Origin: an uncultured Eubacteriales bacterium
GTDB lineage: Bacteria > Bacillota_I > Bacilli_A > RFN20 > UBA1709
Assembly (NCBI GenBank): GCA_964408135.1
Contig: CAYOYG010000001.1
Span: forward strand, 1 to 24,092
DNA: 24,092 bases
Direction of reading: 5' to 3'
Shown: positions 2,883 through 17,363 of the stretch, in pieces
How positions within the stretch are numbered: the first letter of the stretch is position 1
Layout of the letters: every line of letters starts with the position of its first letter
Position numbers and translations under genes: made by a program
The notes under the pieces: generated by a model
Databases searched by the model: none
What the model was told of the DNA's origin: nothing
Seen by the model: only the letters and a program-made list of their open reading frames with translations

Positions 2883-4157
2883 ATGGCTAAATTAGACAAC
2901 AACCGGCCAGATACTTGGGCAAAACAGCTCACTATAAAATACGATATGAATCGATTACCCCAAAAGCAATGGCAAGTACTACGTCCCTTGACTTGGCTTT
3001 TAAGTAGTTTTGATTTTTTTAAACGCAAATTATCGATTGAAAGGATTAATCTAGAAAGTCTAAAGCAGCCATACTTAATCTTATCCAACCATATGGCTTT
3101 TTTAGATTTTAAAGTATTAACTAAAGCGATATTTCCTAAAAGGACGAATTATATTATTGCGATTGATGGTTTTATTAAACGGGAATGGTTATTAAGAGCC
3201 GTCGGTGGTATTTGTAAGCGGAAGTTTACCAACGATATTGTGTTAGTACGACAAATGCTTTATACGTTGCATACTTTAAAACAAAATGTTGCTCTGTATC
3301 CAGAGGCCCGCTATTCCTTATGTGGGACAACCAGTGTTTTACCCAATAGTTTAGCCAAAATGTGTCGTTTAGCGAAAGTACCAGTCGTAACTTTTATTAT
3401 GCATGGTAACTATCTAGATCAACCAGTCTGGGGTGTTGATCATCGTCGCGGTAACAATGTCGCCGTCACTATGAAACAAATCCTCACCAAAGAAGAAGTG
3501 ACGACTTTACCATTAGAAGAAATTGAAGCCCGCATTCAAGCGGCGTTTGTCTATGATGAATATACATGGCAAAAAGAAAACAATGTTTTAATTCATGATC
3601 CTAAAAATGCGGAAGGACTTCATCGAATTTTATACAAATGCCCGCATTGCTTACAAGAAGGAAAGATGAATTCAAAAGGGGTTGAACTCTTCTGTGAAGA
3701 ATGTGGTCAGCGCTATACACTAAAACTAAATGGCGAATTAGAAGCGAATACTGGCTCTACCAAATTCAGCCACATTCCGACCTGGTTTGAGTGGCAACGC
3801 GCCTGTGTTCGTCAAGAAATTATCGCTGGCACCTACCACATTGAAGATGAGGTCAATATCTTTTCACTTCCCAATACCAAAGGTTTTATCCCACTTGGCG
3901 TTGGAAAACTGGTTCACAACCAAAATGGATTTATGATTACCTGGGAAGAAAACGGTGTTAAGAAACAACAACACAATCCGGTATCGGCGATGTATAGTGT
4001 TCACATTGAATACAATTATAATGGGCAAGGTGATGGTGTAGATATTACAACCCTAACCGACAATTATTATTGTTATCCACTTCATTTAAAAAATATAGTG
4101 ACAAAGATTCACTTTGCAACCGAAGAGATGTTTAAATTAGGTGGCTACAAGTCGTAA
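2883..4157 (+). CDS. Lysophospholipid/glycerolipid acyltransferase (PlsC-like) with a C-terminal Cys4 zinc-ribbon-like extension
   Basis: Catalytic NHxxxxD motif (SNHMAFLD) and block III-like YPEARYS; CPHC-x14-CEEC in the C-terminal half; RBS GAGGTG. Confidence 0.8.
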   Translation: MAKLDNNRPDTWAKQLTIKYDMNRLPQKQWQVLRPLTWLLSSFDFFKRKLSIERINLESLKQPYLILSNHMAFLDFKVLTKAIFPKRTNYIIAIDGFIKREWLLRAVGGICKRKFTNDIVLVRQMLYTLHTLKQNVALYPEARYSLCGTTSVLPNSLAKMCRLAKVPVVTFIMHGNYLDQPVWGVDHRRGNNVAVTMKQILTKEEVTTLPLEEIEARIQAAFVYDEYTWQKENNVLIHDPKNAEGLHRILYKCPHCLQEGKMNSKGVELFCEECGQRYTLKLNGELEANTGSTKFSHIPTWFEWQRACVRQEIIAGTYHIEDEVNIFSLPNTKGFIPLGVGKLVHNQNGFMITWEENGVKKQQHNPVSAMYSVHIEYNYNGQGDGVDITTLTDNYYCYPLHLKNIVTKIHFATEEMFKLGGYKS

Positions 4158-4266: not shown

Positions 4267-5859
4267 ATGAGTAAGAAAACATTTTATATTACGACCCCGA
4301 TTTATTATACATCGGGTAACCTCCACATTGGACACGCTTATACCACCGTCATTTGCGATGCGATCGCACGCTATAAAAAGATGAAGGGGTATGATGTATA
4401 TTACTTAACTGGAACCGATGAACACGGTGAAAAAGTACAAAAGAAGGCGCAAGAAGCCAATAAAACACCACAACAATATGTGGATGATTTAGTTGTCGGA
4501 ATTAACGACTTATGGAAGATTTTAAAAATCGATTATAATCAATTTATTCGGACAACCAATGGATTTCATAAAGAAAATGTCCAAAAAATCTTTACTCAAC
4601 TCTTACAACAAGGGGATATCTATCTTGGCGAATACGAAGGCTGGTATTGCACACCATGTGAAGCCTTCTGGACCGAAAGCCAATTGACACCAGAACACAA
4701 TTGTCCGGATTGTGGACGTCCGGTCAAGATCGCCAAAGAAGAAGCATACTTCTTTAGAATGTCAAAGTATGCCGATCGTCTAGTTCAATATTATAACGAT
4801 CATCCTGATTTTATTGAACCAGAATCGCGCAAAAATGAAATGTTAAATAACTTTATTAAACCAGGACTTGAAGATCTATGTGTCTCACGGACTTCTTTTG
4901 ACTGGGGGATTCCGGTTGTTGAAAATAATAAACATGTAGTCTATGTTTGGATCGATGCTTTATCCAACTACATCTCTGCTCTAGGTTATAATCAAAAAGA
5001 TCATACTTTATTTGATCGCTACTGGCATAACGATGCAGACCATACGATTTTGCATGTCGTTGGTAAAGAAATTGTTCGCTTCCATGTTATCTATTGGCCA
5101 ATTATGCTTTTAGCTTTAAATCTACCTTTACCAAGCAAAGTCTTTGCTCATGGGTGGATTATCATGAAGAGCGGTAAGATGTCCAAGTCGGTTGGTAATG
5201 TGGTGTATCCAAGTATGATTATTGATCGCTACGGATTGGATGCGTTACGTTATTTTGTTACTACTTGCATTCCATTTGGACAAGATGGTGTCTTTACACC
5301 AGAATTGTTTATTGATAATTTCAATAATGATTTAGTAAATAACTATGGTAACTTAGCCAATCGAACCTTGACGATGATTGAAAAATACTTCCAAGGAGTA
5401 ATTCCGGATTATCATGGTCCTGTCGGGGCCTTTGATGAAAAGTTATACCAAGAAATTCAAAACACTGTTAGTGAATATGAAAAACAATTGGATCAATACT
5501 ATGTTCACGCCGCCAATAAAGCCATCTTTGATTTACTCTCCAAAGGGAATAAGTATATTGAAGATACAAAACCGTGGGAAATTGCCAAAGATCCAACCCG
5601 GAAAGCTGAATTAGAATCCGTCATGGTTCATCTGGCTTTATTAATTAAAGTCGCTACGATCTTATTACAACCAACCTTAGTAGAAACACCAGTCAAGATT
5701 CTACAACAACTAGGGGTTGTTGATACAAGCTATGACCATCTATGTGATTTTAAATCGGTTGTAGGATGCAAAGTCAATAAGGGAGCTGTTTTGTTCCCAA
5801 GATTGGATGCCAAAATTGAAACGCTCTATATGAATGAATATATGATAAGAGGGAAATAA
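4267..5859 (+). CDS. metG: Methionine--tRNA ligase, short form without the C-terminal tRNA-binding (Trbp111-like) domain
   Basis: FYITTPIYY start, HIGH (LHIGH) and KMSKS motifs, zinc knuckle CxxC...CxxC. Start moved from 4201 to 4267 because RBS AAGGAG precedes it and the sequence matches the usual MetRS N-terminus. Confidence 0.96.
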   Translation: MSKKTFYITTPIYYTSGNLHIGHAYTTVICDAIARYKKMKGYDVYYLTGTDEHGEKVQKKAQEANKTPQQYVDDLVVGINDLWKILKIDYNQFIRTTNGFHKENVQKIFTQLLQQGDIYLGEYEGWYCTPCEAFWTESQLTPEHNCPDCGRPVKIAKEEAYFFRMSKYADRLVQYYNDHPDFIEPESRKNEMLNNFIKPGLEDLCVSRTSFDWGIPVVENNKHVVYVWIDALSNYISALGYNQKDHTLFDRYWHNDADHTILHVVGKEIVRFHVIYWPIMLLALNLPLPSKVFAHGWIIMKSGKMSKSVGNVVYPSMIIDRYGLDALRYFVTTCIPFGQDGVFTPELFIDNFNNDLVNNYGNLANRTLTMIEKYFQGVIPDYHGPVGAFDEKLYQEIQNTVSEYEKQLDQYYVHAANKAIFDLLSKGNKYIEDTKPWEIAKDPTRKAELESVMVHLALLIKVATILLQPTLVETPVKILQQLGVVDTSYDHLCDFKSVVGCKVNKGAVLFPRLDAKIETLYMNEYMIRGK

Positions 5860-7727
5860 TGAAAGATATTATAGTTGTCGGAGGAGGTCATGCTGGCGTT
5901 GAAGCCGTTTTAGCGGGAGCTAGAAAAGGTCTAAACGTTGTTTTAGTGACGCTCAATTTTAAAAGTGTCGCGATGATGCCTTGCAATCCATCCATTGGTG
6001 GACCCGCTAAAGGCGTCGTCACCCGAGAAATTGATGTATTAGGCGGCGAAATGGCCAAAGCGGCCGATGCCACCTATTTACAAATGAAAATGTTAAATAC
6101 CGCCAAAGGACCAGGGGTTCAATGCTTGCGGGCTCAATCGGATAAAATCGAATATAAACAATACATGCAAGATAAAATTCAAAGTTTTCCCAATATTGAA
6201 GTCGTTGAAGAAATGGCGACGAAACTCATCGTGGAAAACAAAGAATGTCTTGGCGTGGTTTTAAGTGATGGACGTAAAATTTATGCTCGTAAAACCATAT
6301 TAACCACCGGGACCTATCTTGAAGCTAAGATTCTAGTTGGTCATACCAGTAAAATTGCCGGACCAGATGGCGAAAAATCCGCACATGGACTATCGCAATC
6401 GCTCAAAGAAAATGGAATTCCAATTCTTCGACTAAAAACCGGAACTCCAGCTCGAATTGAACGCACTAGTGTTGATTTTTCCAAAATGGAACCACAACCA
6501 GGAACGGCAGGAGAACTTAGTTTTTCCTATGAAACAAAACAATTTATTCCCCTGGAACAACAACATCTTTGCTACTTAATCCATACTCAACCAACCACTC
6601 ATAAAATAATTTTGGAAAATCTTAAAAAATCCGCGATGTATGGTGGGATGGTTGAAGGAATTGGTCCACGTTATTGTCCTTCCATTGAAGATAAATTGGT
6701 TCGCTTTGCTGATAAAGAAGCGCACCAATTATTTGTTGAACCGGAATCGGTCCATTTAAATACCGTCTATTTACAAGGTTTTTCAACGTCTATGCCAATA
6801 GAAATACAAGAATTGATGATTCATTCCTTACCGGGATTTGAAAACTGCAAGGTTTTGAAATACGCGTATGCGATTGAATACGATGCGATTGATCCAACCT
6901 ATTTAAAACAATCACTCGAATTAAAAGCCATTGCAAACTTATATTGTGCTGGTCAAATTAATGGGACTTCCGGCTATGAAGAAGCCGCTGGTCAAGGGTT
7001 AATCGCAGGAATCAATGCTTCTTTAGCCATTGAAAATAAGGCACCCCTTATTTTAAAACGTAGTGAAGCTTATCTTGGGGTTATGATTGATGATTTAACC
7101 ACCAAAGGAACTAAAGAACCTTATCGTCTATTAACTTCCCGGGCGGAATTTCGTTTATTACTGCGCCATGATAATGCCGATATTCGTTTATTACCCTACG
7201 GGTACCAAGTTGGTTTAATCTCGCAAGAACGCTATGATCGCTTCCAACAAAAATTGGAGGATATTCAACATCTACATACTTTGCTTGATTCCATTACTTT
7301 TTCGAATAAACATCCCCTTAATGAGTATCTAGAAACCAATGGATACGCTCGGATTCATAGTAGCAGTAGTGCAAGTAGTTTATTAAAACGGCCTGAAATC
7401 GATGTTGCCTTTTTAAAGCCATTTTTAAATCTAAATAAAAACTATGATCCATCCACGATTGAACAAGTGGAAATCAATATAAAATACGAAGGTTATATTA
7501 AAAAGCAATTAGAACAAGTGGCTTTAATGATTGAACTTGAAAGCATTGCCTTACCATTTGATATCGATTATACGAAAGTGCCAAATTTAGCAATCGAAGC
7601 TCGGCAAAAATTAAATAAGATTAAACCAACGAATATTGGACAAGCCTCCCGTATCTCGGGAGTTAATCCAAGTGATATTAGTATTTTAATTATGTATTTT
7701 AAATTAACAAAGGAGAATAAAGCATGA
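5859..7727 (+). CDS. mnmG: tRNA uridine 5-carboxymethylaminomethyl modification enzyme MnmG (GidA)
   Basis: GGGHAG FAD motif, CNPSIGG, RLKTGTP, GPRYCPSIEDK, GQINGTSGYEEAAGQG; TAATG overlap with the metG stop. Confidence 0.97.
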   Translation: MKDIIVVGGGHAGVEAVLAGARKGLNVVLVTLNFKSVAMMPCNPSIGGPAKGVVTREIDVLGGEMAKAADATYLQMKMLNTAKGPGVQCLRAQSDKIEYKQYMQDKIQSFPNIEVVEEMATKLIVENKECLGVVLSDGRKIYARKTILTTGTYLEAKILVGHTSKIAGPDGEKSAHGLSQSLKENGIPILRLKTGTPARIERTSVDFSKMEPQPGTAGELSFSYETKQFIPLEQQHLCYLIHTQPTTHKIILENLKKSAMYGGMVEGIGPRYCPSIEDKLVRFADKEAHQLFVEPESVHLNTVYLQGFSTSMPIEIQELMIHSLPGFENCKVLKYAYAIEYDAIDPTYLKQSLELKAIANLYCAGQINGTSGYEEAAGQGLIAGINASLAIENKAPLILKRSEAYLGVMIDDLTTKGTKEPYRLLTSRAEFRLLLRHDNADIRLLPYGYQVGLISQERYDRFQQKLEDIQHLHTLLDSITFSNKHPLNEYLETNGYARIHSSSSASSLLKRPEIDVAFLKPFLNLNKNYDPSTIEQVEINIKYEGYIKKQLEQVALMIELESIALPFDIDYTKVPNLAIEARQKLNKIKPTNIGQASRISGVNPSDISILIMYFKLTKENKA

Positions 7728-8419
7728 ACCAAACCGCATTTATTTCTTTGCTAAAAACGCATAATATTGATTTAAGTTCGCAACAAGTAGAACAATTTAA
7801 ACTCTATTTTGATTTATTGGTCCACGAAAATAATTTGTATAACCTAACCGCGATTACAAGTGAGGAGGGAGTCTATGAAAAGCATTTCTATGACTCAATT
7901 TCCCCACTTTTCCATATCTCTTTAACGGGAAAAAAAGTACTCGATGTAGGGGCAGGAGCTGGGTTTCCATCACTACCTTTAAAGATTGTAGAACCTTCTT
8001 TACACATAAGTGTTTTAGATGCCACCGCGAAGAAGATGCATTTTATTGAAAAATTGCGGAATATTTTAAAGCTTAATAATGTAAACACCATCATAGCCCG
8101 GGCGGAAGAATATAACCAACAACAATTTGATGTCGTTGTCGCCCGGAGTGTCGCTGCTTTAAATATCCTGCTTGAACTAGTCTCAAATCTCGTCAAAGTA
8201 GGGGGTATTTTTATTGCCTACAAAGGTTCCCACTATCAAGAAGAATTAGAGGCAAGCAAACAAGCCATCGCCACATTAGGGTTTGAATTAATCGATCAAC
8301 AACGCTACACCCTACCAAGCGATCAATCGACCCGCTGCAATCTCTACTTTAAAAAAATTCGACCAAATGATAAGATATACCCAAGAAGCTATAGCAAAAT
8401 TAAAAGTAAACCATTATAA
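7724..8419 (+). CDS. rsmG: 16S rRNA m7G527 methyltransferase RsmG (GidB)
   Basis: NLTAI, KHFYDS, SAM motif LDVGAGAGFP, RAEE, ARSVA; ATGA overlap with mnmG; usual gidA-gidB order. Confidence 0.95.
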   Translation: MNQTAFISLLKTHNIDLSSQQVEQFKLYFDLLVHENNLYNLTAITSEEGVYEKHFYDSISPLFHISLTGKKVLDVGAGAGFPSLPLKIVEPSLHISVLDATAKKMHFIEKLRNILKLNNVNTIIARAEEYNQQQFDVVVARSVAALNILLELVSNLVKVGGIFIAYKGSHYQEELEASKQAIATLGFELIDQQRYTLPSDQSTRCNLYFKKIRPNDKIYPRSYSKIKSKPL

Positions 8420-8431
8420 GGATGTGACGAT

Positions 8432-9202
8432 ATGGGCAAGATTATTGCAATCGCGAACCAAAAAGGCGGCGTCGGAAAGACAACCACGGCCATAAATTTA
8501 TCGGCTTGTTTGGCCTACCTTGGTAAGAAAGTATTACTCGTCGATATTGATCCACAAAGCAATACGACGCGTGGTTTAGGCTTTGATGCTTCCACCATCG
8601 ATATTAGTATTTATGATGTTATGAGTAAAAATATCGACATCAAAACGATTATTCGGAAAACCGCTTTACCTAAAATGTTTTTAGTTCCTGGCTCGATTGA
8701 TTTAGCGGGAGTGGATATTGAATTATTGAGTGTTCCGCAAAGAATGCGTATTTTAAAAAACCATCTTGAATCCATTAAAGATCATTACAATTATATAATC
8801 ATCGATTGTCCACCATCTCTAGGCCTATTAAGCTTGAGCGCCTTAATTGCGGCCGATAGTGTTTTAGTCCCAATGCAATGTGAATATTATTCGATGGAAG
8901 GGATTGTTATGTTGCTCAACACGATACGTAAGATTCAAAAAGAAGAAAATCCCAATGTTCAAATCGAAGGTATATTATTAACGATGTGTGATTTCCGCAC
9001 AAAATTTACTTTTGAAGTGCAGCAAGATGTGCGCCAAACCTTTAAAGACAAAGTCTATAAAGTAGGCATTCCGCGCAATATACGTCTCGCTGAAGCGGCA
9101 TCACGCGGCAAGTCTATCATTGAATATAATATCAACTCTTCAGGAGCCAAAGCATATCTTGATGTCGCCAAAGAGGTGATTAAGTATGACAAAGCAAACT
9201 AA
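8432..9202 (+). CDS. parA: Chromosome partitioning ATPase ParA/Soj
   Basis: MGKIIAIANQKGGVGKTT deviant Walker A, DIDPQSN, IIIDCPPSLG, IPRNIRLAEA. Confidence 0.95.
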   Translation: MGKIIAIANQKGGVGKTTTAINLSACLAYLGKKVLLVDIDPQSNTTRGLGFDASTIDISIYDVMSKNIDIKTIIRKTALPKMFLVPGSIDLAGVDIELLSVPQRMRILKNHLESIKDHYNYIIIDCPPSLGLLSLSALIAADSVLVPMQCEYYSMEGIVMLLNTIRKIQKEENPNVQIEGILLTMCDFRTKFTFEVQQDVRQTFKDKVYKVGIPRNIRLAEAASRGKSIIEYNINSSGAKAYLDVAKEVIKYDKAN

Positions 9203-10010
9203 AGATGAAAAGAAGATAATGGGGAAGGGTTTGCAAGACATCTTAAAACAAGAAGGTACCTTGCAACAACAACTCGAATTTATTCAAAAAGATGCGAAAC
9301 GGAATAAGATCTACGTCCCCATTCATCAACTGGTTACCAATCCTTTTCAAACACCGAAAATATACAACGCGAAGCAAATTAGCGAACTCGCTTTATCTAT
9401 CGTCGACCACGGGATACTTCTCCCCATTTTAGTGCGTCAAAATCAAGGTCGCTATGAGATAATCTCGGGGGAAAAACGTTGGCGTGCTGCCATAGAAGCA
9501 AAACTCACCGAAGTACCTGTGATCATTGAAAACATCGATGATCACGTCATGAAAGAAATCTCATTAATTGAACAATTACAAAGCGATGATATTACGCCAC
9601 TTGAAGAAGCAAAATCCTATCAAAATTTAATTGAGCAATATGGCTATAGTCATCAAAGCATCGCGAAACAAATCGGTAAATCAAGAACCTATGTGACCAA
9701 TCTTCTACGTATTACCCGTCTACCAGAAGATGTGCTAGATTATGTCAATCATGGAAAAATATCCATTTCTCATGTCCGACCACTCGTTGGGAAAGATCCA
9801 CAAGTCATTCGCGAATGTGTCCAAAAGATTGTGGACGAACATTTGAGTGTCCGAGCCTGCGAAAATTTATTAAAAATGAAAAAAAGCAATATCAATATAC
9901 AAGTGACATCAAAACAAGTCATTATTGATTATCATAGCGAAGAAGAGTTAGCACGCATCTTACGCCAATTGCAAGTAGGAAAACAATATGGGAAAAAACA
10001 TCGTTCCTAA
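9186..10010 (+). CDS. parB: ParB/Spo0J family partitioning protein with divergent CTP-binding motifs
   Basis: N-terminal MGKGL peptide (LGRGL-like), ParB N domain with SGEKRWRAA, HTH SHQSIAKQIGKSRTYVTNLLR, C-terminal VIIDYHSEEELARIL; overlaps parA by 17 nt; RBS GAGGTG. Confidence 0.9.
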   Translation: MTKQTKDEKKIMGKGLQDILKQEGTLQQQLEFIQKDAKRNKIYVPIHQLVTNPFQTPKIYNAKQISELALSIVDHGILLPILVRQNQGRYEIISGEKRWRAAIEAKLTEVPVIIENIDDHVMKEISLIEQLQSDDITPLEEAKSYQNLIEQYGYSHQSIAKQIGKSRTYVTNLLRITRLPEDVLDYVNHGKISISHVRPLVGKDPQVIRECVQKIVDEHLSVRACENLLKMKKSNINIQVTSKQVIIDYHSEEELARILRQLQVGKQYGKKHRS

Positions 10011-10710
10011 TTTGGTGTATCCTCTTAAAGATGAAGGATTGCAAAAAGGTTTACAAGTAGTCTCTTCACTATTGGAAGATATCTTTCAAGATTCAACCAT
10101 CTTAAAGGGACCAATGTGTGTCGTTTTTAATGATCCTAGTTTTGGATTCCCGATGTTTGCGAGTGGTTATCCACTAGGTATTCGAACCAGTCTACATGAT
10201 CCAAATAATGTTTGTTTACTTATCAGTCAATTAACTCATGAATTGGTACACTATATATTTTATAAGTGCAAGATAGACACCACCCAAACGGCGTATCGCT
10301 ATGAAGAAATTATTGCCGAAGCGATCGCCCTGTATGCTTTAAAACAAGCACCCATGTATTGGACAACCGAGGATTTTTCACTTGATTCAAGTGAGAAGGA
10401 AATGTTTGAAGTTTGTCATCAACAAAGTGTGCATAATTACACGAAACAACAAATGCCAATAAAACCCCAAGTTTCAAAAGCTCGTTGGCGTTTACTAGAA
10501 AAGAATTATGCCACTATTCGGGAACGACATTATCAAGAAGTCTTGTATGTCTATGATCAACTCGATAAAAAAACAATTGATCCAAAACTTATTCTTAACT
10601 ATACACCTTATTTATTAAAAAATGGCAGTATCGATTTCGAAAAATGGAGTCAAGAACAACCAAGTGATACATTAACAATCATTCGTAAAGTTCAACCAAT
10701 TATAATCTAA
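9988..10710 (+). CDS. Hypothetical protein with a zinc metallopeptidase signature (HExxH plus downstream Glu; IrrE/ImmA- or gluzincin-like)
   Basis: QLTHELVHY (H84-H88) and YEEIIAE (E106/E107); AGGA 7 nt before ATG; overlaps parB by 23 nt; no signal peptide evident. Confidence 0.65.
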   Translation: MGKNIVPNLVYPLKDEGLQKGLQVVSSLLEDIFQDSTILKGPMCVVFNDPSFGFPMFASGYPLGIRTSLHDPNNVCLLISQLTHELVHYIFYKCKIDTTQTAYRYEEIIAEAIALYALKQAPMYWTTEDFSLDSSEKEMFEVCHQQSVHNYTKQQMPIKPQVSKARWRLLEKNYATIRERHYQEVLYVYDQLDKKTIDPKLILNYTPYLLKNGSIDFEKWSQEQPSDTLTIIRKVQPIII

Positions 10711-10741: not shown

Positions 10742-12073
10742 CTATTCTTTCACATCTTGAAGGATTTCATTGAGTGTCGGATGAGCATGTATAACGGCTT
10801 TAAATTGTGCTAAGGTCATTGTGTTATTCATCGCAACTACCATCTCACCAATTAATAAGGAAGCATCATGTCCGATGATATGAGCGCCTTTAATAACATC
10901 ATTTATATCGGTGATGATCTTCACAAATCCATAGGTTTCATCATAAATATTTGCCATACAGTTGGCCGTATATAATGATTTATACACTTTATATTCACCA
11001 GGAAGAAACTCATTTTCTTTTTTTCCAACATAGGCAATTTCAGGAAGGGTAAAGATAACACTTGGGGTTAAATCTAAACGAATAATATTTTTACTTTGAT
11101 TTAAATGATGGAGTAATACTTTGCCTTGAAAGACAGCACTATGTGCCAGGAGAGATTGACCATTGATATCACCAATAGCATATATGGAAGGAATTGATGT
11201 TTGATAATGTTCATCCACGATAATTCCACGAGTAGTATAAGCAATACCAAGCCGATCAAGTTCGCATTTATCGAGATTTGGTTCCCGACCAATCGCAACA
11301 AGTAGATAATCTGCTTGCAAAGATTGTTCCTTATTTTTTTCACAGAAGTACACCTTTATTGACTCATCACTGGCTTCCACTTTGCGAATCGTGACACCGG
11401 TTTTAACATTGATTCCTTTGCGTTTGAAAGCGACCGATAAACGCTTAGCTACTTCGCTATCAACAATCGGAAGGATGGAATCTTGCATTTCAAGCATGGT
11501 GACACTTACCCCTAATTCAGCATACAAAGAGGCAAATTCACTGCCGATAACACCACTACCAACAATCAACATACTTTTTGGTAATGCAGTTAAATTTAGG
11601 GCGTCTTTTGCGTGTAAAATGCGTGGATGAAATAGGGATATGTTTGGTAGGGAGCGACAATGTGAGCCTGTCGCTAAAATAATAATGTCACATTCAATGA
11701 TTTCATCATTCACAAAAACGCGATGAGGAGCAACGATATGGGCTTCGCCTTTTATGACGCGAATATTGGCTTGATCCATCCGATATTTAATTCCTTCATG
11801 TAAACGGAAAATCACACCACTTTTTCGTAACAAAACCGCTTGATAGTCCAGGGTTGGTTCATTATGAATAACCCCAAATTTGCCAGCTTCTAAACTCGCT
11901 TTATATTGCTTCGCACTTTGCAGTAATGTTTTAGTAGGGATGCATCCTTCCCACAAGCAAACGCCGCCTAATTCATTTTTTTCAATGACGACGACGTCAA
12001 AACCAGCTTCTTTTGCTTGAAGAGCTGTTTCATAACCAGAGGGACCACCGCCAATGATGACAAGTTTATTCAT
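10742..12073 (-). CDS. lpdA: Dihydrolipoamide dehydrogenase (glycine cleavage L protein)
   Basis: GGGPSG FAD motif, redox disulfide GGVCLWEGCIPTK, NAD motif GSGVIG, C-terminal HAHPTLNE; last gene of the gcv cluster, overlapping the gcvPB stop. Confidence 0.93.
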   Translation of the reverse strand: MNKLVIIGGGPSGYETALQAKEAGFDVVVIEKNELGGVCLWEGCIPTKTLLQSAKQYKASLEAGKFGVIHNEPTLDYQAVLLRKSGVIFRLHEGIKYRMDQANIRVIKGEAHIVAPHRVFVNDEIIECDIIILATGSHCRSLPNISLFHPRILHAKDALNLTALPKSMLIVGSGVIGSEFASLYAELGVSVTMLEMQDSILPIVDSEVAKRLSVAFKRKGINVKTGVTIRKVEASDESIKVYFCEKNKEQSLQADYLLVAIGREPNLDKCELDRLGIAYTTRGIIVDEHYQTSIPSIYAIGDINGQSLLAHSAVFQGKVLLHHLNQSKNIIRLDLTPSVIFTLPEIAYVGKKENEFLPGEYKVYKSLYTANCMANIYDETYGFVKIITDINDVIKGAHIIGHDASLLIGEMVVAMNNTMTLAQFKAVIHAHPTLNEILQDVKE

Positions 12074-13520
12074 AGCGATGCATGTCCTGGAATTTAATAA
12101 TCGGTTTACGAGCGGCTAGCGCTTCATCGAGACGACGAACTGGTGTATTATATGGCGCATGATGAAGTAGATCTGGATTTTCTTTGGCTTCTTGGGCAAT
12201 CTTTTTCATAACCGCGATAAATTCATCGAGTGTTTGTAATGATTCATTTTCGGTTGGTTCCACCATCAAGGCTTGGGTAATCAATAAAGGGAAATAAATC
12301 GTTGGGGCATGATAGCCTAAATCGAGTAGACGTTTAGCAACATCCAGTGTTGCTATGCCACTACTTTTATCTTTTAAACCATTGAAGACTACTTCGTGTT
12401 TGCAATGATTTGCGATCGGTAATTCATAGTCATTTTTTAACATCTCTTTAATATAATTCGCATTTAAAACGGCTAAGCGAGCGACGTTTTTAACGTTTTC
12501 TTTGCCGAGTGTTTTTAAATAAACAAAGGCTTTAATGACAACCGCCATATTACCATAGAAACTACTGATCTGAATGTTGTCTTTGTTGAAGGTAATATCA
12601 TAACCATTTTTAGCTTTGATTATTCGTGGATTAGGTAAGAATGGTTGGAGTTTTTTATTAACACCGACCGGACCACTACCCGGACCACCGCCGCCATGTG
12701 AGGTTGAAAATGTCTTATGGAGATTGAGATGGACAACATCAAATCCCATGTCACCTGGACGAGCATAACCAAGTAGAGCATTTAAATTGGCACCATCATA
12801 GTAGAGTAAACCACCACAGTCATGGACCAACGTGGCAATGCTTAAGATATCTTTTTCGTAAATTCCTAATGTATTTGGATTCGTTAACATAATCCCTGCG
12901 ACTTCATCACTTAAATTGGCTTTTAAAGAATCTAGGTTCACAGTACCATCAGGATTTGAATCTATTTCGATGACATCAAATCCACAAACAGCAGCGGAGG
13001 CTGGATTCGTACCATGGGCACTATTAGGAACCAATATTTTGGTTCTTTTTGTATCATGATGATGTTTATGATATTCACGAATAATCATGAGTCCAGTTAA
13101 TTCACCATGGGCACCAGCGAACGGATTTAGGGAGAATTCTTCTAGTCCACACACTTCACTTAACATTTGCGCTGTTTCATAATAGATGGCCAATGTTCCT
13201 TGAGCAGAACTAGCATCACTTAATGGATGTAGAGTAGTAAATTCAGAAAGGTTTGCTAATTCTTCATTAATTTTTGGATTGTATTTCATCGTACACGAAC
13301 CAAGAGGGTAAAATCCACTTTCAACCCCGAAGTTTAATTGGGATAAGTTGGTGTAGTGACGAACACAATCAAGCTCACTGACTTTTGGTAAAATTGTCGC
13401 ATTACCGCGCAATAAAGATGAATCTAAATCCAGGGAAATCGGTAGAGTATTTTTTGGTAAACTATACCCTTTTCTACCTTCGATACTTAATTCAAAGATT
13501 AATTTATCATAAAATTTCAT
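12066..13520 (-). CDS. gcvPB: Glycine dehydrogenase (decarboxylating), P protein subunit 2
   Basis: YPLGSCTMKYNPK, SAHGTNPASA, LLYYDGANLNA, PLP-lysine motif HLNLHKTF, EPTENES; RBS AGGAGG. Confidence 0.96.
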   Translation of the reverse strand: MKFYDKLIFELSIEGRKGYSLPKNTLPISLDLDSSLLRGNATILPKVSELDCVRHYTNLSQLNFGVESGFYPLGSCTMKYNPKINEELANLSEFTTLHPLSDASSAQGTLAIYYETAQMLSEVCGLEEFSLNPFAGAHGELTGLMIIREYHKHHHDTKRTKILVPNSAHGTNPASAAVCGFDVIEIDSNPDGTVNLDSLKANLSDEVAGIMLTNPNTLGIYEKDILSIATLVHDCGGLLYYDGANLNALLGYARPGDMGFDVVHLNLHKTFSTSHGGGGPGSGPVGVNKKLQPFLPNPRIIKAKNGYDITFNKDNIQISSFYGNMAVVIKAFVYLKTLGKENVKNVARLAVLNANYIKEMLKNDYELPIANHCKHEVVFNGLKDKSSGIATLDVAKRLLDLGYHAPTIYFPLLITQALMVEPTENESLQTLDEFIAVMKKIAQEAKENPDLLHHAPYNTPVRRLDEALAARKPIIKFQDMHRYE

Positions 13521-13521
13521 A

Positions 13522-14838
13522 TTACTTAGCCTCCTTTACGCAAGAAAGCAGTTGATTCATTTCTGCCAATGTTCGCTTTTCGGTAACCGCAAACATCGCA
13601 TGACCATTATCTAAAATCAGTGGTCCTTCAATGCCGTGTTTCTTTAGTTTTTGATTTAATGTTTTCAAATTGCAGTTGGCTTTTAAAACAAATTCTTTGA
13701 AAAATGGTCCGGAATATACTTTTTCAAATTGATTCGTTTTAATCAATTCTTCGTATAAGTAATGGGCATTCTTATAGGAGTTTAATTGAACTTCTTTGAT
13801 ACCTTCTTCACCCATCAAAGCCATATAGATGGTAGCAAACAAGGACATCAAGGATTGGTTTGAACAGATATTGGAATTGGCTTTTTCCCGACGAATATGT
13901 TGTTCACGAGCTTGTAAGGTTAAGACAAATCCACGTTTACCATCCACATCCACGGTCTTCCCAACAATACGACCTGGTAATTTGCGCAGTAAATTTTCTT
14001 TACAAGCTAAAAAGCCAAGATAAGGACCACCAAAATTTAATGGTAAGCCTAGACTTTGACATTCACCACAAGCAATATCGGCCCCATATTCTTGTGGGGT
14101 TTTTAAAACCGTTAATGTCGAAGGATCGACATTCATAATCAATAAACCTTTTCGTTGATGAACTAGATTACTAACCCCCACTAAAGGTTCAATATTTCCG
14201 TAGTAGTTGGGATTTTGAACGACGAAGGCACTAAATGGTTGTTCCGTCTTCTTTTGAAGATCTTCGAGAGAGACAACACCATCGTTTAAATCAACTATCT
14301 CAACAACGACATCCTTACATTGAGCATACGTTTTGATGACGTGGATGGTATTTGGATTTACGCCCGCACTTACTAATACCCGTTTGACTTTTTTATCCGC
14401 TACAGCCATCGCGATAGCTTCGGCGGTGGCGGTCGCCCCATCGTACATATTCGCATTAGCGCAATCAAGATTGGTTAATGATGTAATCATCGATTGGAAT
14501 TCAAAAATATAACGCAATGTTCCTTGAGCAATTTCTGGTTGATAAGGGGTATAGGTCGTTAAGAATTCTTGCCGAGAGATTAAAGGGAAGATGATGCTTG
14601 GCGTATAATGATCATAGGCACCTGCGCCACGGAAGGTGGCGAGTGATTGATTTTGTTTGGCTATTTTTTGTAAAAGGGCACGAACTTCTATTTCACTTTT
14701 AGCACTTTCTAGATTTAAATCGCGGTTTAAAACTAACTTAGGATCAACATCCGCGAATAAATCATCAATCTTGGATACATGGATTTTGTCCAACATTTGT
14801 TTGATTTCATTCTCGGTATGAGGGAAATATTTAAACAT
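13522..14838 (-). CDS. gcvPA: Glycine dehydrogenase (decarboxylating), P protein subunit 1
   Basis: FRGAGAYDH, FLTTYTPYQPEIAQG, MYDGATA, FGGPYLG, LQAREQHIRREKANSNICSNQ. Confidence 0.96.
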   Translation of the reverse strand: MFKYFPHTENEIKQMLDKIHVSKIDDLFADVDPKLVLNRDLNLESAKSEIEVRALLQKIAKQNQSLATFRGAGAYDHYTPSIIFPLISRQEFLTTYTPYQPEIAQGTLRYIFEFQSMITSLTNLDCANANMYDGATATAEAIAMAVADKKVKRVLVSAGVNPNTIHVIKTYAQCKDVVVEIVDLNDGVVSLEDLQKKTEQPFSAFVVQNPNYYGNIEPLVGVSNLVHQRKGLLIMNVDPSTLTVLKTPQEYGADIACGECQSLGLPLNFGGPYLGFLACKENLLRKLPGRIVGKTVDVDGKRGFVLTLQAREQHIRREKANSNICSNQSLMSLFATIYMALMGEEGIKEVQLNSYKNAHYLYEELIKTNQFEKVYSGPFFKEFVLKANCNLKTLNQKLKKHGIEGPLILDNGHAMFAVTEKRTLAEMNQLLSCVKEAK

Positions 14839-14846
14839 ACTCTCAC

Positions 14847-15215
14847 CTACTTACAATGTTTGACGTATTCACTATAATCTAGTAATTTTTGAACTTCTTT
14901 CGGATTGCTCATTTGGACTTTAACAATCCAAGCTTCCGCGGCATTTTGATTTATTTTTTCAGGTTGATCGTTTAATTCTTCATTCACGGCAACGATAGTT
15001 CCTGATACCGGTAGAAATAGTTCACTCGCCGCTTTTACGCTTTCGATGGCACCGAATTCTTCAAATTGTTTAAAGCTACTATCGACTTCTGGTAAATCAA
15101 CAAAGACAATTTCACCTAATTTTTTGGCAGCATAGGTTGAGATACCAACCCAAGCAAAGTTACCTTCGACTTTGACCCATTCATGCGATTCACTAAATTT
15201 GTAATTTTGTTCCAT
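14847..15215 (-). CDS. gcvH: Glycine cleavage system H protein (lipoyl carrier)
   Basis: SHEWV, VGISTYAAKKLGEIVFVDLP, lipoyl-Lys motif IESVKAASE. Start moved from 15311 to 15215 (MEQNYKF) because RBS GGAGG precedes it; the longer frame overlaps gcvT. Confidence 0.95.
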   Translation of the reverse strand: MEQNYKFSESHEWVKVEGNFAWVGISTYAAKKLGEIVFVDLPEVDSSFKQFEEFGAIESVKAASELFLPVSGTIVAVNEELNDQPEKINQNAAEAWIVKVQMSNPKEVQKLLDYSEYVKHCK

Positions 15216-15231
15216 AGTTATGTTCCTCCGT

Positions 15232-16314
15232 TTATTTATTTTTCTTTTGATAGAATTTTTTGTTACGAACAATCGCCTGTAAGCGTTTGTTGCGCACTTC
15301 GACTTCAACAAGGGTTCCTATTTTACTAGCTTCGCTTTGAATCAAGGCTAGGCCTAAAGGTTTATTTAAAGAAGGTGATAGATAGCCGGTAGTAATATAA
15401 CCCACTTCTTTACCTTGATAAAAGACCTTGTAAGGGTTTCGAATAATACCTTTATCGAGTAATTCAAGTCCGACCACTTTACGGGGTAAACCTTTTTGTT
15501 GTTGTTCAACAAGAGCATCACGACCAATAAATGGTTTATCGAGTTTCACAGCAAAGCTAAGACCCGCTTCTAATGGAGTGATGGTCGAATCAATTTCATG
15601 ACCATAAAGTGGCATATTCGATTCGAATCGCAGGGTATCGCGACAACCTAGACCACATAAGGTTACATGATATTCATCGCGCAGTAGTTGCCATAAGCGT
15701 AGAATAACCGCATGACTGCCATAAATTTCAACACCATCTTCTCCTGTATATCCTGTCGCCGAGACAATAATGGTTTCATCCCACAGTGTTTCTTCGCTAA
15801 AGGTATAGAAGGATAAGGTGATTGGATGATTGATTATCTTGGCAAATACAGTCCGTGCGTTTGGTCCTTGCAAGGCAATTTGCGAATAAGAACCAGACAC
15901 ATTTTCAATCACGACATCATAGACGCCTTGATTGGCTTTTAGCCAAGCATAATCCTTGTCGGTATTGGAAGCATTGACCACCAATAAATATTTAAATGGA
16001 CTATACTTATAAACGATTAAATCATCGACGACACCGCCAGTAGGATAGCAAAGTAATCCATAGGTACAACTTCCTTCACTAGCGTTAATAATGGTATTGG
16101 TAAAAATCGACTCTATGAACGCAGTTGCTTCCTTACCAATAACAACGATTTCTCCCATATGAGAAACATCAAACATACCCACATCATTGCGAACCGCATG
16201 GTGTTCTGCACTGATGCTTGTATATTGAATCGGCATTAAAAAAGAAGCGAAATCGACCATGGTCGCTCCACTTCGTATATGTTCTTCATATAAACTAGTT
16301 TTTTTAATTTCCAT
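15232..16314 (-). CDS. gcvT: Glycine cleavage system T protein (aminomethyltransferase)
   Basis: EHHAVRNDVGMFDVSHMGE, DDLIVY, VNASN, TGYTGEDGVE, GLGCRDTLRFE, YGHEI. Start at 16314 preferred over 16326 because GAGGGG lies 6 nt upstream. Confidence 0.96.
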   Translation of the reverse strand: MEIKKTSLYEEHIRSGATMVDFASFLMPIQYTSISAEHHAVRNDVGMFDVSHMGEIVVIGKEATAFIESIFTNTIINASEGSCTYGLLCYPTGGVVDDLIVYKYSPFKYLLVVNASNTDKDYAWLKANQGVYDVVIENVSGSYSQIALQGPNARTVFAKIINHPITLSFYTFSEETLWDETIIVSATGYTGEDGVEIYGSHAVILRLWQLLRDEYHVTLCGLGCRDTLRFESNMPLYGHEIDSTITPLEAGLSFAVKLDKPFIGRDALVEQQQKGLPRKVVGLELLDKGIIRNPYKVFYQGKEVGYITTGYLSPSLNKPLGLALIQSEASKIGTLVEVEVRNKRLQAIVRNKKFYQKKNK

Positions 16315-16338
16315 ATTACCCCTCATTTACGTATTCAT

Positions 16339-16388: not shown

Positions 16389-17363
16389 TCATCCTTCAAA
16401 GTAATTCTTTAATGCTTGAAGAATACTTGATAAATCAAAATCATAGATATAATTTTCTAGTTTCACTTTTAAAAGAGTTTCTTGAATGGATGTAAAAGTA
16501 TAGGGCTGATTTACAAAGAAGGTTTCCGCCTCTTTCAGCGCCTGTTTTTCAAAGAAGTCGCCACTAATTTTACACGACTGAATCTGGTGATTGACCAAAG
16601 TAAAATTAAAATCAATGACCCCCGCTTTACTATAAGTAGCTAACTTCTTGCTATACGAAGTTTTGCGAAAGATATATGAATCTTCTTCGTATTTTTTTTG
16701 TCCTTCGCGGACAAGTGAATCCATCAAAGGTGTTAAAACCATTCGTTGTAAGGATAAATGTAAAATCAGTTCCTTGATAAATTCATCTTTTGTTTTGTGG
16801 TAAAAAGGGCGAATATTTACCACACGTGATTGAACGCTGCTGATTCCTTTACTCCCCAACTTTAAAACATTCGGAGTTAAATATTTACCCATCCTAGATA
16901 AATCGGTATCAAACAATAATGTCCCGTGTAAACAGGCACAATTGTGTAAACGATAAAAAGCATTTCCTGAAAATTTCTTGCCATCGATGAGTAAATCGTT
17001 GCGACCGGAAAATGTTGCTTTAATTCCCATTTTAGCAAAGGCTGTAATCATTTTGTCTAGATAGGTTTTAAAGACCATTTCTTTATCAAAGTTGGGAGTG
17101 ATGAACGAAAACATTAAACAATTTTCATCGGCATAGACAGCACCGCCTCCAGAAGGGCGACGGTAAATGTTGACTTGATCGCTTTGAGCTTGGGCAATAT
17201 TGAGTTCATCATAAATCAATTGATGACGGCCAACCACTAAAGATTTTTCAATATTCCACAAGAAAAAATATTCTTCATTTTGATTATTTTTTAATAAATA
17301 TTCTTCGAGGGCAAAATAATACGAACAACGATTGATTTTTTGGGGTGTATCGACATAAAACAT
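16389..17363 (-). CDS. lplA: Lipoate--protein ligase (LplA family)
   Basis: YYFALEEYL, LVVGRHQ, RRPSGGGAVYAD, GRNDLLIDGKKFSGNA, HGTLLFD; RBS AAGGAG; immediately upstream of gcvT. Confidence 0.93.
   Translation of the reverse strand: MFYVDTPQKINRCSYYFALEEYLLKNNQNEEYFFLWNIEKSLVVGRHQLIYDELNIAQAQSDQVNIYRRPSGGGAVYADENCLMFSFITPNFDKEMVFKTYLDKMITAFAKMGIKATFSGRNDLLIDGKKFSGNAFYRLHNCACLHGTLLFDTDLSRMGKYLTPNVLKLGSKGISSVQSRVVNIRPFYHKTKDEFIKELILHLSLQRMVLTPLMDSLVREGQKKYEEDSYIFRKTSYSKKLATYSKAGVIDFNFTLVNHQIQSCKISGDFFEKQALKEAETFFVNQPYTFTSIQETLLKVKLENYIYDFDLSSILQALKNYFEG

Follow-up and report, generated by a model that had tools for sequence, protein, structure and literature searches.

The window analysed here, positions 1 to 24,092 of contig CAYOYG010000001.1 of GenBank assembly GCA_964408135.1, comes from an uncultured member of the Bacilli, a small-genome wastewater bacterium, and encodes a ParA ATPase followed by the partition protein ParB (parB, 9186..10010, + strand). 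The cytidine triphosphate (CTP) switch has been regarded as the core of chromosomal ParB function since 2019. Judged by its sequence, this parB appears to be a selected gene with a remodelled nucleotide pocket and not a decaying one, and we put at about even the chance that its product is a functional ParA partner whose CTP-gated sliding cycle has been weakened or lost. On this reading, a genuine chromosomal ParB of a ~1-Mb Bacilli genome, under purifying selection and accompanied by an intact ParA and canonical origin-proximal parS, would have had its clamp machinery remodelled at two places: the nucleotide pocket and the tether between the DNA-binding domain (DBD) and the C-terminal domain (CTD).

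Nucleotide pocket and interdomain tether

The protein scores above the curated cut-offs of both ParB_N (90.5 bits; cut-off 26.3) and HTH_ParB (102.4 bits; 22.6), which places it in the ParB/Spo0J family, and also above that of TIGR00180 (160 bits; 58.45). HMMER alignment to Bacillus subtilis Spo0J (6sdk_A, E 6e-41) and Noc (7nfu_A) positions the motifs residue by residue: Q55-T56-P57 pairs with QPR, G76-I-L-L79-P80 with GILQP, G95-E-K97-R98 with GERR and E129-Q130-L-Q132-S133 with ENLQR. The original prediction had described substituted CTP motifs at these residues; the substitutions are indeed there, and its coordinates (9348-9356, 9468-9479 and 9570-9584) agree with codon arithmetic from 9186. 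None of the canonical sliding-clamp motifs QPR, GERR and ENxQR is present. The parts of the protein are as follows (all on the + strand).

9186..9245: N-terminal ParA-activating peptide, residues 1-20, KKIMGKGLQDIL; aligns to LG(R/K)GL of relatives, with K14 and G13/G15 kept
9258..9287: TLQQQLEFIQ, residues 25-34; invariant in five clade proteins, predicted helix 26-35
9348..9359: P-motif 1, Q55-T56-P57-K58 in place of Q-P-R-x; arginine lost, K58 invariant in the clade
9411..9425: C-motif loop, G76-I-L-L79-P80 (GxLQP); all-hydrophobic in the clade
9468..9479: Box II, G95-E96-K97-R98 (GERR with the first R replaced by K); fixed in the clade, minimal GxxR core present
9570..9584: Box III, E129-Q130-L-Q132-S133 (ENxQR); E and Q kept, N and R positions replaced and variable in the clade
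9675..9710: helix-turn-helix (HTH) recognition segment, G164-K-S-R167...N172..R175, GKSRTYVTNLLR; aligned to Spo0J GKSRPHIANHLR, clade-invariant but for the fixed A171T
9882..9893: residual DBD-CTD junction, residues 233-236; lysine-rich linker and CTD helix alpha1 missing
9894..10007: putative cut-down CTD (strand-strand-helix in the AlphaFold2 model), residues 237-272; aligns to the CTD of relatives without helix alpha1

The published mutants most useful for reading this pocket are those of Caulobacter ParB. There, R60A, R103A, R104A, R139A, N136A, G79S and S74A bind little or no CTP, and Q58A, E135A and E102A bind CTP without hydrolysing it (PMC8367383, cited here and below for excerpts of its text, as are PMC5499601, PMC13245405, PMC12704722, PMC12260392 and PMC12462528). 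When these residues are transferred by motif, and not through a printed alignment to the Caulobacter chain, the window ParB replaces four of the seven positions of the first, binding-null class (R60, R103, N136 and R139) and retains the other three (R104, G79 and S74) together with all three hydrolysis residues. The B. subtilis mutants R79A, R80A and N112S, invoked earlier as unable to spread, did fail to form foci, as did G77S (PMC5499601).

Two details of the original prediction need amending. QPR was called Box I there; recent papers call it P-motif 1 and use Box I for the C-motif around GxLQP (PMC13245405, PMC12704722). The weight put on L79 in GILLP was also too high, GILLP and GVLLP being present in otherwise canonical ParBs. 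We rejected L79 as a diagnostic position: canonical ParBs of the same family carry GxxTP, and foci of B. subtilis Q61A resemble the wild type (PMC5499601).

The second change, loss of the tether, was not noticed in the original prediction. In alignment, the window ParB and its closest relatives (the clade described below) lack ~17-21 residues between the last DBD helix and the CTD of the family's canonical ParBs. Measured as the span from R223 to L255 in aligned ParBs, the groups compare as follows.

Window clade: 31-33 aa
Canonical ParBs of the same family: 48-52 aa
Two other canonical families: 55-60 aa
Two eroded families: 45-46 aa
Third eroded family: 34-41 aa

The 23 canonical full-length ParBs of the order have spans of 48-60 aa; the 192 validly anchored GERR ParBs have a median of 63 and a 5th percentile of 52. 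Four GERR values fell below 40, three of them misalignments and one real (P0113, span 39). The strong form of an association, with a short span always accompanying pocket erosion, was rejected on account of P0113, whose motifs are canonical.

The AlphaFold2 model of the window ParB (mean predicted local distance difference test score 87.8, above 90 across residues 41-230) places a helix at 222-232 and then a strand at 237-240, with ~4 linker residues and no CTD helix alpha1. The model of P0070, a canonical family member, has helices at 218-235 and 237-247 and strands at 251 (251-253) and 258. An independent contig (X6, 9675-9985) is identical over the stretch encoding the junction, and Pfam ParB_C gave no match in the window ParB. 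The compartment that traps DNA in the closed clamp is built from a linker of 'invariably ~20 amino acid' length (Jalal et al., PMC8367383). The model predicts no linker of this length in the window ParB, and a four-residue junction would presumably be unable to form such a DNA-holding compartment. The earlier statement that the N-terminal peptide, the HTH and the CTD are all kept holds for the first two, the CTD apparently being present only in cut-down form. A basic tail, GKQYGKKHRS (residues 264-274; 9975-10007), occurs in the window ParB and in none of the other four clade proteins; it might supply the non-specific DNA contacts that the reduced CTD is left without. A two-copy complex prediction of residues 41-232, made with a 42-row alignment and no controls, scored 0.00; it gives no verdict and is not used as evidence.

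A ParB clade under selection

Contigs from three other studies reproduce the parB sequence. Two of them (X2, 8708-9800, and X6, 9146-9557) have no differing letters over the motif region, and pieces of a third (X8, 9251-9401 and 9448-9716) differ by one synonymous change. Since contigs from the runs of other studies match over the motif region, the substitutions are not sequencing or assembly errors. The X8 contigs derive from an RNA library; transcription of parB was not accepted from them, because DNA can occur in such libraries.

Whether these substitutions are common in ParBs, or private signs of decay, had been left as questions. In a sample of 218 ParB proteins from two protein searches, they are rare: GERR occurs in 211, GEKR in six and GETR in one, and 200 proteins match the consensus at QPR, GERR and ENxQR alike. 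Within the family, the 11 further genomes all match it too. The changes are not private either, being common to the window ParB, four metagenome proteins (P0002-P0005; 59, 56, 52 and 49% identity) and one further locus, L055. Every member of this clade carries GEKR, and all lack the QPR arginine, with QTP in the window and QPT, QLP, QPP, FKE and QTP in the others. Box III reads E(Q/S)xQ throughout, with S, K, R, R and Q as the final residue, and the C-motif loops read GILLP, GFVMP, GFVLP, GFLMP and GFILP. Of the related loci, none of four in genome contigs and only one of ten in metagenome contigs (L055, 1,307 bases) belongs to the clade.

A quick IQ-TREE tree recovers these sequences as monophyletic (Shimodaira-Hasegawa approximate likelihood ratio test, SH-aLRT, 100) on a long stem of 0.85; the clade takes no fixed position among the canonical ParBs of the order and stands apart from the deeply eroded groups. 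The independence of erosion events was judged on the SH-aLRT supports of this tree alone. A second, separate and partly eroded pair was also found in metagenomes (P0075, QTEK/GEKR/ENSQK, and P0087, NPEK/GETR/DKLQR). Its DBD-CTD span is 38, and in the tree it joins canonical ParBs of family-like type (SH-aLRT 99) and not the window clade.

The divergence of the window ParB is out of step with that of its neighbours, a point that the original prediction also did not make. Compared with nine full-length family members, the window has identities of 67.3% for ParA, 50.0% for RsmG and 36.9% for ParB, against 68.7, 49.7 and 49.3% in the 36 other family pairs; in the 21 family pairs with matched ParA identity, ParB identity is 47.7%. 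The acceleration is thus specific to ParB, since the window ParA and RsmG are no more divergent than is usual in the family.

Because synonymous sites are saturated at 49-59% protein identity, selection was gauged by domain-wise conservation and population single-nucleotide polymorphisms (SNPs), of which parA and parB together have only five. All five, collected over four runs, are synonymous, and the reading frame is unbroken in all six sequences, whose identity is just 49-59%. Conservation within the clade is 56% overall, with 67% in the N-peptide region, 56.6% in the N-domain, 57% in the HTH and 38% in the C-terminal part; the canonical ParBs of the family are 49% identical overall, and their N-domain is best conserved (61%, vs 50% for the HTH). 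Between the ParA-activating peptide and the N-domain, conservation reaches 67% in the clade vs 41% in the family's canonical ParBs.

Nine canonical family ParBs agree at 56 positions; of these the clade retains 31, has fixed changes at four (F60Y, R97K, T155S and A171T) and varies at 21, including Q55/P56/R57, N130 and R133. S71, G76, G95, E96, R98, E129, Q132 and the recognition segment GKSR...N..R are clade-invariant, and Q55 is kept in four of five clade proteins. K58 is likewise invariant in the clade and is K, Q, L, V, I or T in the family. The ParA-activating LG(K/R)GL motif is conserved across the clade, as MGKGL in the window ParB and LGRGL in the other four proteins. The view that the gene is not in general decay, put forward earlier, is supported by these intact frames, invariant motifs and synonymous SNPs, as well as by the retained parS and the single ParB_N gene described below.

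Genomic setting, parS and the ParB series of the order

The genome assembly holding the window comprises 1.07 Mb in 215 contigs and is 84% complete; the window is its contig C1. A class-B RNase P RNA is present (278 bits) and, together with the names carried by MnmG relatives, assigns the organism to the Bacilli. Only one ParB_N gene was found in this 84%-complete genome, and a second, canonical parB, for which a search had been proposed, was not seen. Five consecutive genes of the window lie on the + strand.

5859..7727, +: mnmG (gidA), context gene of the conserved mnmG-rsmG-parA-parB string; relatives are named MnmG of 'Bacilli bacterium'
7724..8419, +: rsmG (gidB), context gene; homologue upstream of parA in most relatives' loci
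8432..9202, +: parA (soj), apparently intact ParA ATPase; AAA_31 231.9 bits
9186..10010, +: parB, 274 aa; 17-nt overlap with the end of parA
9988..10710, +: unannotated open reading frame (ORF) of 240 aa; 23-nt overlap with the end of parB, carries HELVH (HExxH)

In each of the 46 loci from the order, ParB is immediately preceded by ParA. The window ParA matches ParA chain 8ray_B at 242 bits, with the deviant Walker A motif NQKGGVGKTTT and the segments DIDPQ, IIIDCPPSLG and PRNIRLAEA aligned, bearing out the earlier description of it as intact.

The 240-aa ORF matched nothing in Pfam or NCBIfam and has no counterpart beside parB in any of 45 relatives' loci; it probably lies outside the partition system. 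An atlas search led to unnamed and metallopeptidase-like clusters, and the ORF is more polymorphic than parAB, with 12 synonymous and four non-synonymous SNPs. A complete glycine-cleavage set (gcvT, gcvH, gcvPA and gcvPB) stands beside the partition operon, accompanied in this ~1-Mb genome by a dihydrolipoyl-dehydrogenase-like gene (10742-12073) and a lipoate-protein ligase, the whole group taking in 12066-16326 and 16389-17363 on the - strand.

Two exact matches to TGTTNCACGTGAAACA, which we take to be the parS consensus, lie 2.8 kb apart on contig C15; a reversed-pattern control found no match in the genome at one mismatch or fewer. The gene order on C15, recF-gyrB-gyrA-(parS)-serS-MFS(parS), where MFS denotes a major facilitator superfamily gene, marks it as the origin region. 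Relatives in the family mostly have one perfect parS each. One of the two sites, the intergenic perfect palindrome TGTTTCACGTGAAACA (2938-2953 of locus L065 on C15), lies inside a T-box leader (2896-3100, - strand; RF00230, 110 bits) upstream of serS and just downstream of gyrA. The other (154-169 of the same locus) is inside the MFS transporter gene.

Smc-ScpAB was not found in the window genome with the TIGR02168, SMC hinge and ScpB profiles, nor in any of 61 genomes sampled from the order. A closed relative has an operon (L068, G002:C1:213500-219500) of JetA (191 bits), DUF4194/JetB and a JetC-like protein of 1,135 aa (SbcC_Walker_B, AAA_29), with no JetD-like gene directly downstream on the same strand. 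It looks like an MksBEF-type condensin in place of Smc. A JetC-like fragment is also present in the window genome (L069, contig C125).

A ParB match was obtained in 46 of the 61 sampled genomes, the other 15 having none at E<=1e-10. Of these 46 ParBs, 24 are canonical at all three motifs, one is partial and 21, including the window's, lack all three. A parS with at most one mismatch occurs in 22 of the 24 genomes with canonical motifs and in nine of the 21 without (window included). The 20 other eroded ParBs (L030 and L032-L050) come from other families of the same order, and eight of their genomes have parS at this threshold, six of them exact. In examples of these proteins Box II has become GYKR, GVKR or GRKR and Boxes I and III are unrecognisable; each of the 20 has a well-conserved ParA (212-320 bits) directly upstream. 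The eroded forms inspected keep G-x-K/R-R and have lost both glutamates and LGxGL. The window clade is the mildest case among the eroded ParBs of the order. Neither the Smc-ScpAB gap across the order nor these far more eroded ParBs beside a conserved ParA figured in the original prediction.

Possible mode of action and known systems

We hypothesize that the window ParB would still bind parS through its HTH, dimerise through its short CTD and offer two N-terminal LG(K)GL peptides to ParA. With four phosphate-contacting positions of the pocket replaced, three of them apparently free to vary within the clade, and a tether cut from ~20 to ~4 residues, which would affect the canonical DNA-holding compartment during sliding, CTP-gated closure, DNA entrapment and long-range sliding would be weakened or lost, and ParB would serve as a centromere adaptor that mostly stays in place. 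Conservation of the GxxR core, of the two catalytic glutamates and of the N-domain suggests that a step relying on nucleotide or on self-association has survived. A loss of sliding may be tolerable because no Smc-ScpAB was found, the genome is small with one or two parS, and sister lineages are fully eroded yet keep ParA. That complete erosion recurs within this order, beside a conserved ParA, implies that these cells can do without the switch.

Several observations pull the other way. G95, E96, R98, E129, Q132, S71 and G76 are invariant in the clade, Q55 survives in four of five proteins, and the N-domain is still 56.6% identical. The retention of both catalytic glutamates (E96 and E129) argues that nucleotide is still bound and hydrolysed, since it is hydrolysis in particular that requires the corresponding B. 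subtilis residues, E78 and E111 (PMC8494293). Arginine to lysine and asparagine to glutamine are conservative replacements, and K58, invariant in the clade and variable in the family, could compensate for the lost arginine. ParB1 and ParB2 of plasmid SCP1, whose pockets look worse, are bona fide CTPases (PMC13245405). In B. subtilis, CTP hydrolysis matters more in cells that have no Smc (PMC8494293), and on that basis retention of the switch could be expected in a lineage lacking Smc. P0113 combines canonical motifs and a span of 39 with the same absence of CTD helix alpha1, so the shortening is in part independent of pocket erosion. Within the clade, parS and ParA are confirmed for the window genome only.

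The strongest competing explanation is a bona fide CTP-dependent sliding clamp with an alternative pocket, in which K58 and K97 provide the phosphate contacts and Q130 replaces the asparagine, the kinetics are possibly altered and the short tether is roomy enough. The conserved GxxR core, catalytic glutamates, Q55 and Q132, the invariant K58 and the five synonymous SNPs in parA/parB all fit it. We nevertheless consider it a distinctly less probable account, because three of the binding-null positions vary in the clade (T/P/P/P/E at the QPR arginine, Q/S at the asparagine and S/K/R/R/Q at the final arginine), the ~20-aa DNA-compartment tether (PMC8367383) is down to ~4 residues, and the order includes complete erosion beside a conserved ParA, where the switch appears dispensable. 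A switch of ligand, with ATP, GTP or UTP bound instead of CTP, seems improbable. Some proteins of the ParB-CTPase fold bind ATP or GTP, and ATP binders tend towards more hydrophobic loops, such as GFFKP (PMC12704722), a weak trend that the all-hydrophobic C-motif loop of the clade follows; but GILLP and GVLLP also occur in otherwise canonical ParBs, most changes lie in the phosphate motifs and not at base contacts, and neither sequence nor AlphaFold3 predicts nucleotide preference in this fold (PMC12704722). Because divergent pockets can still be CTPases (PMC13245405) and specificity is unpredictable (PMC12704722), the outcomes named in the original prediction (a lost or re-tuned CTPase, another nucleotide or CTP-independence) are not separable by sequence.

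Relaxed selection, with the gene drifting to loss as in the ParB-less relatives of the order, is more doubtful still. ParB does evolve faster than ParA and RsmG in this lineage, 15 of the 61 genomes have no ParB match, and there is no detected Smc-ScpAB to load; yet the frame is intact across the six sequences, the clade is more conserved overall than the family's canonical ParBs (56 vs 49%), GEKR is invariant along with the HTH and the ParA-activating motif, the genome retains parS, the SNPs are all synonymous and the sequence is consistent over four studies. Hardly credible is an artefact of assembly or binning, or a paralogue of plasmid or Noc type taken for the chromosomal ParB. The assembly is fragmented and incomplete (215 contigs, 84%) and a Noc model gives the top NCBIfam score, but the gene sits in the mnmG-rsmG-parA-parB string common to relatives, the Noc score (179 bits) is far under the cut-off of 315, the ParA-activating motif is present and independent runs agree.

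Beyond the window, we tentatively entertain a broader proposal, to which we give clearly less than even weight: that this order has repeatedly turned its chromosomal ParB into a nucleotide-independent centromere adaptor working with ParA, partly with canonical parS. The window clade would then be an intermediate, in which the phosphate-binding arginines and the tether are gone and the catalytic glutamates are not yet lost.

So far, the known exceptions to the CTP switch have come from plasmids: proteins that still use CTP in a variant pocket, or that have no CTPase domain. The window ParB is chromosomal and retains its domain, its ParA, the activating peptide and parS, yet appears to replace four positions needed for CTP binding in Caulobacter and to lose the tether. 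Most interesting to us is the pairing of pocket erosion with tether loss, together with the graded erosion seen in an order whose sampled genomes yielded no Smc-ScpAB. If CTP dependence proves weak or absent, the protein would offer a natural system for ParA-driven segregation without spreading clamps, test whether the absence of Smc-ScpAB relaxes the need for them, and show which pocket residues are truly indispensable. An order-wide conversion would provide the first chromosomal counterpart, with a ParB/Srx domain, of the plasmid ParT system and a natural deletion series for the parts of the CTP cycle that ParABS needs. Should the CTPase be normal, the known sequence solutions for CTP binding in chromosomal ParB would be widened.

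Our literature search for chromosomal ParBs with naturally eroded pockets, which included a 2025 survey of the ParB-CTPase fold and did not extend to the supplementary datasets of PMC12704722 and PMC12260392, found no variant pocket outside plasmid and orphan ParBs and no CTP-independence outside plasmid ParT. With the chromosomal ParB/Spo0J clamps (6SDK, Caulobacter crescentus 6T1F/7BM8, Thermus thermophilus, Helicobacter pylori) the window ParB shares ParB_N and HTH_ParB (E ~1e-36 to 1e-41), the parA-parB operon, the LG(K/R)GL peptide, a canonical 16-bp parS near the origin, the GxxR core and both catalytic glutamates. Unlike them, it replaces the QPR arginine, the first GERR arginine and the ENxQR asparagine and arginine, has a tether of ~4 vs ~20 residues without CTD helix alpha1, and comes from a genome in which the Smc-ScpAB partner was not found. 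Noc (TIGR04285) gives the top NCBIfam score, 179.4 bits, below the 315-bit cut-off, and the E-value for 7nfu is similar to those for ParB chains; the position of the gene after parA, the ParA-activating motif and the parS in the genome set the window ParB apart from Noc.

Also close are SCP1 ParB1 (G-S-S-R) and ParB2 (G-H-R-R) of Streptomyces coelicolor, likewise operon-encoded HTH-ParB proteins with non-consensus pocket residues, which bind and hydrolyse CTP, so that loss of the consensus need not abolish CTP binding, hydrolysis or sliding (PMC13245405). Unlike the window ParB, they are plasmid-borne and actinobacterial, have their own parS, and keep and need the P-motif 1 arginine; the excerpts of that paper do not mention tether loss. 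The precedent for the mechanism proposed here is ParT of plasmid SCP2, a CTP-independent ParB-like protein that loads at parS and activates its ParA partner via an N-terminal peptide (PMC12260392). Clamp closure strengthens ParA stimulation without being absolutely required, and open ParB still stimulates moderately (PMC12462528). ParT is plasmid-borne, from Actinomycetota, and has a short helical N-domain instead of a ParB/Srx CTPase domain (PMC12260392); the window ParB, in contrast, is a chromosomal orthologue in which ParB_N is present and conserved (90.5 bits).

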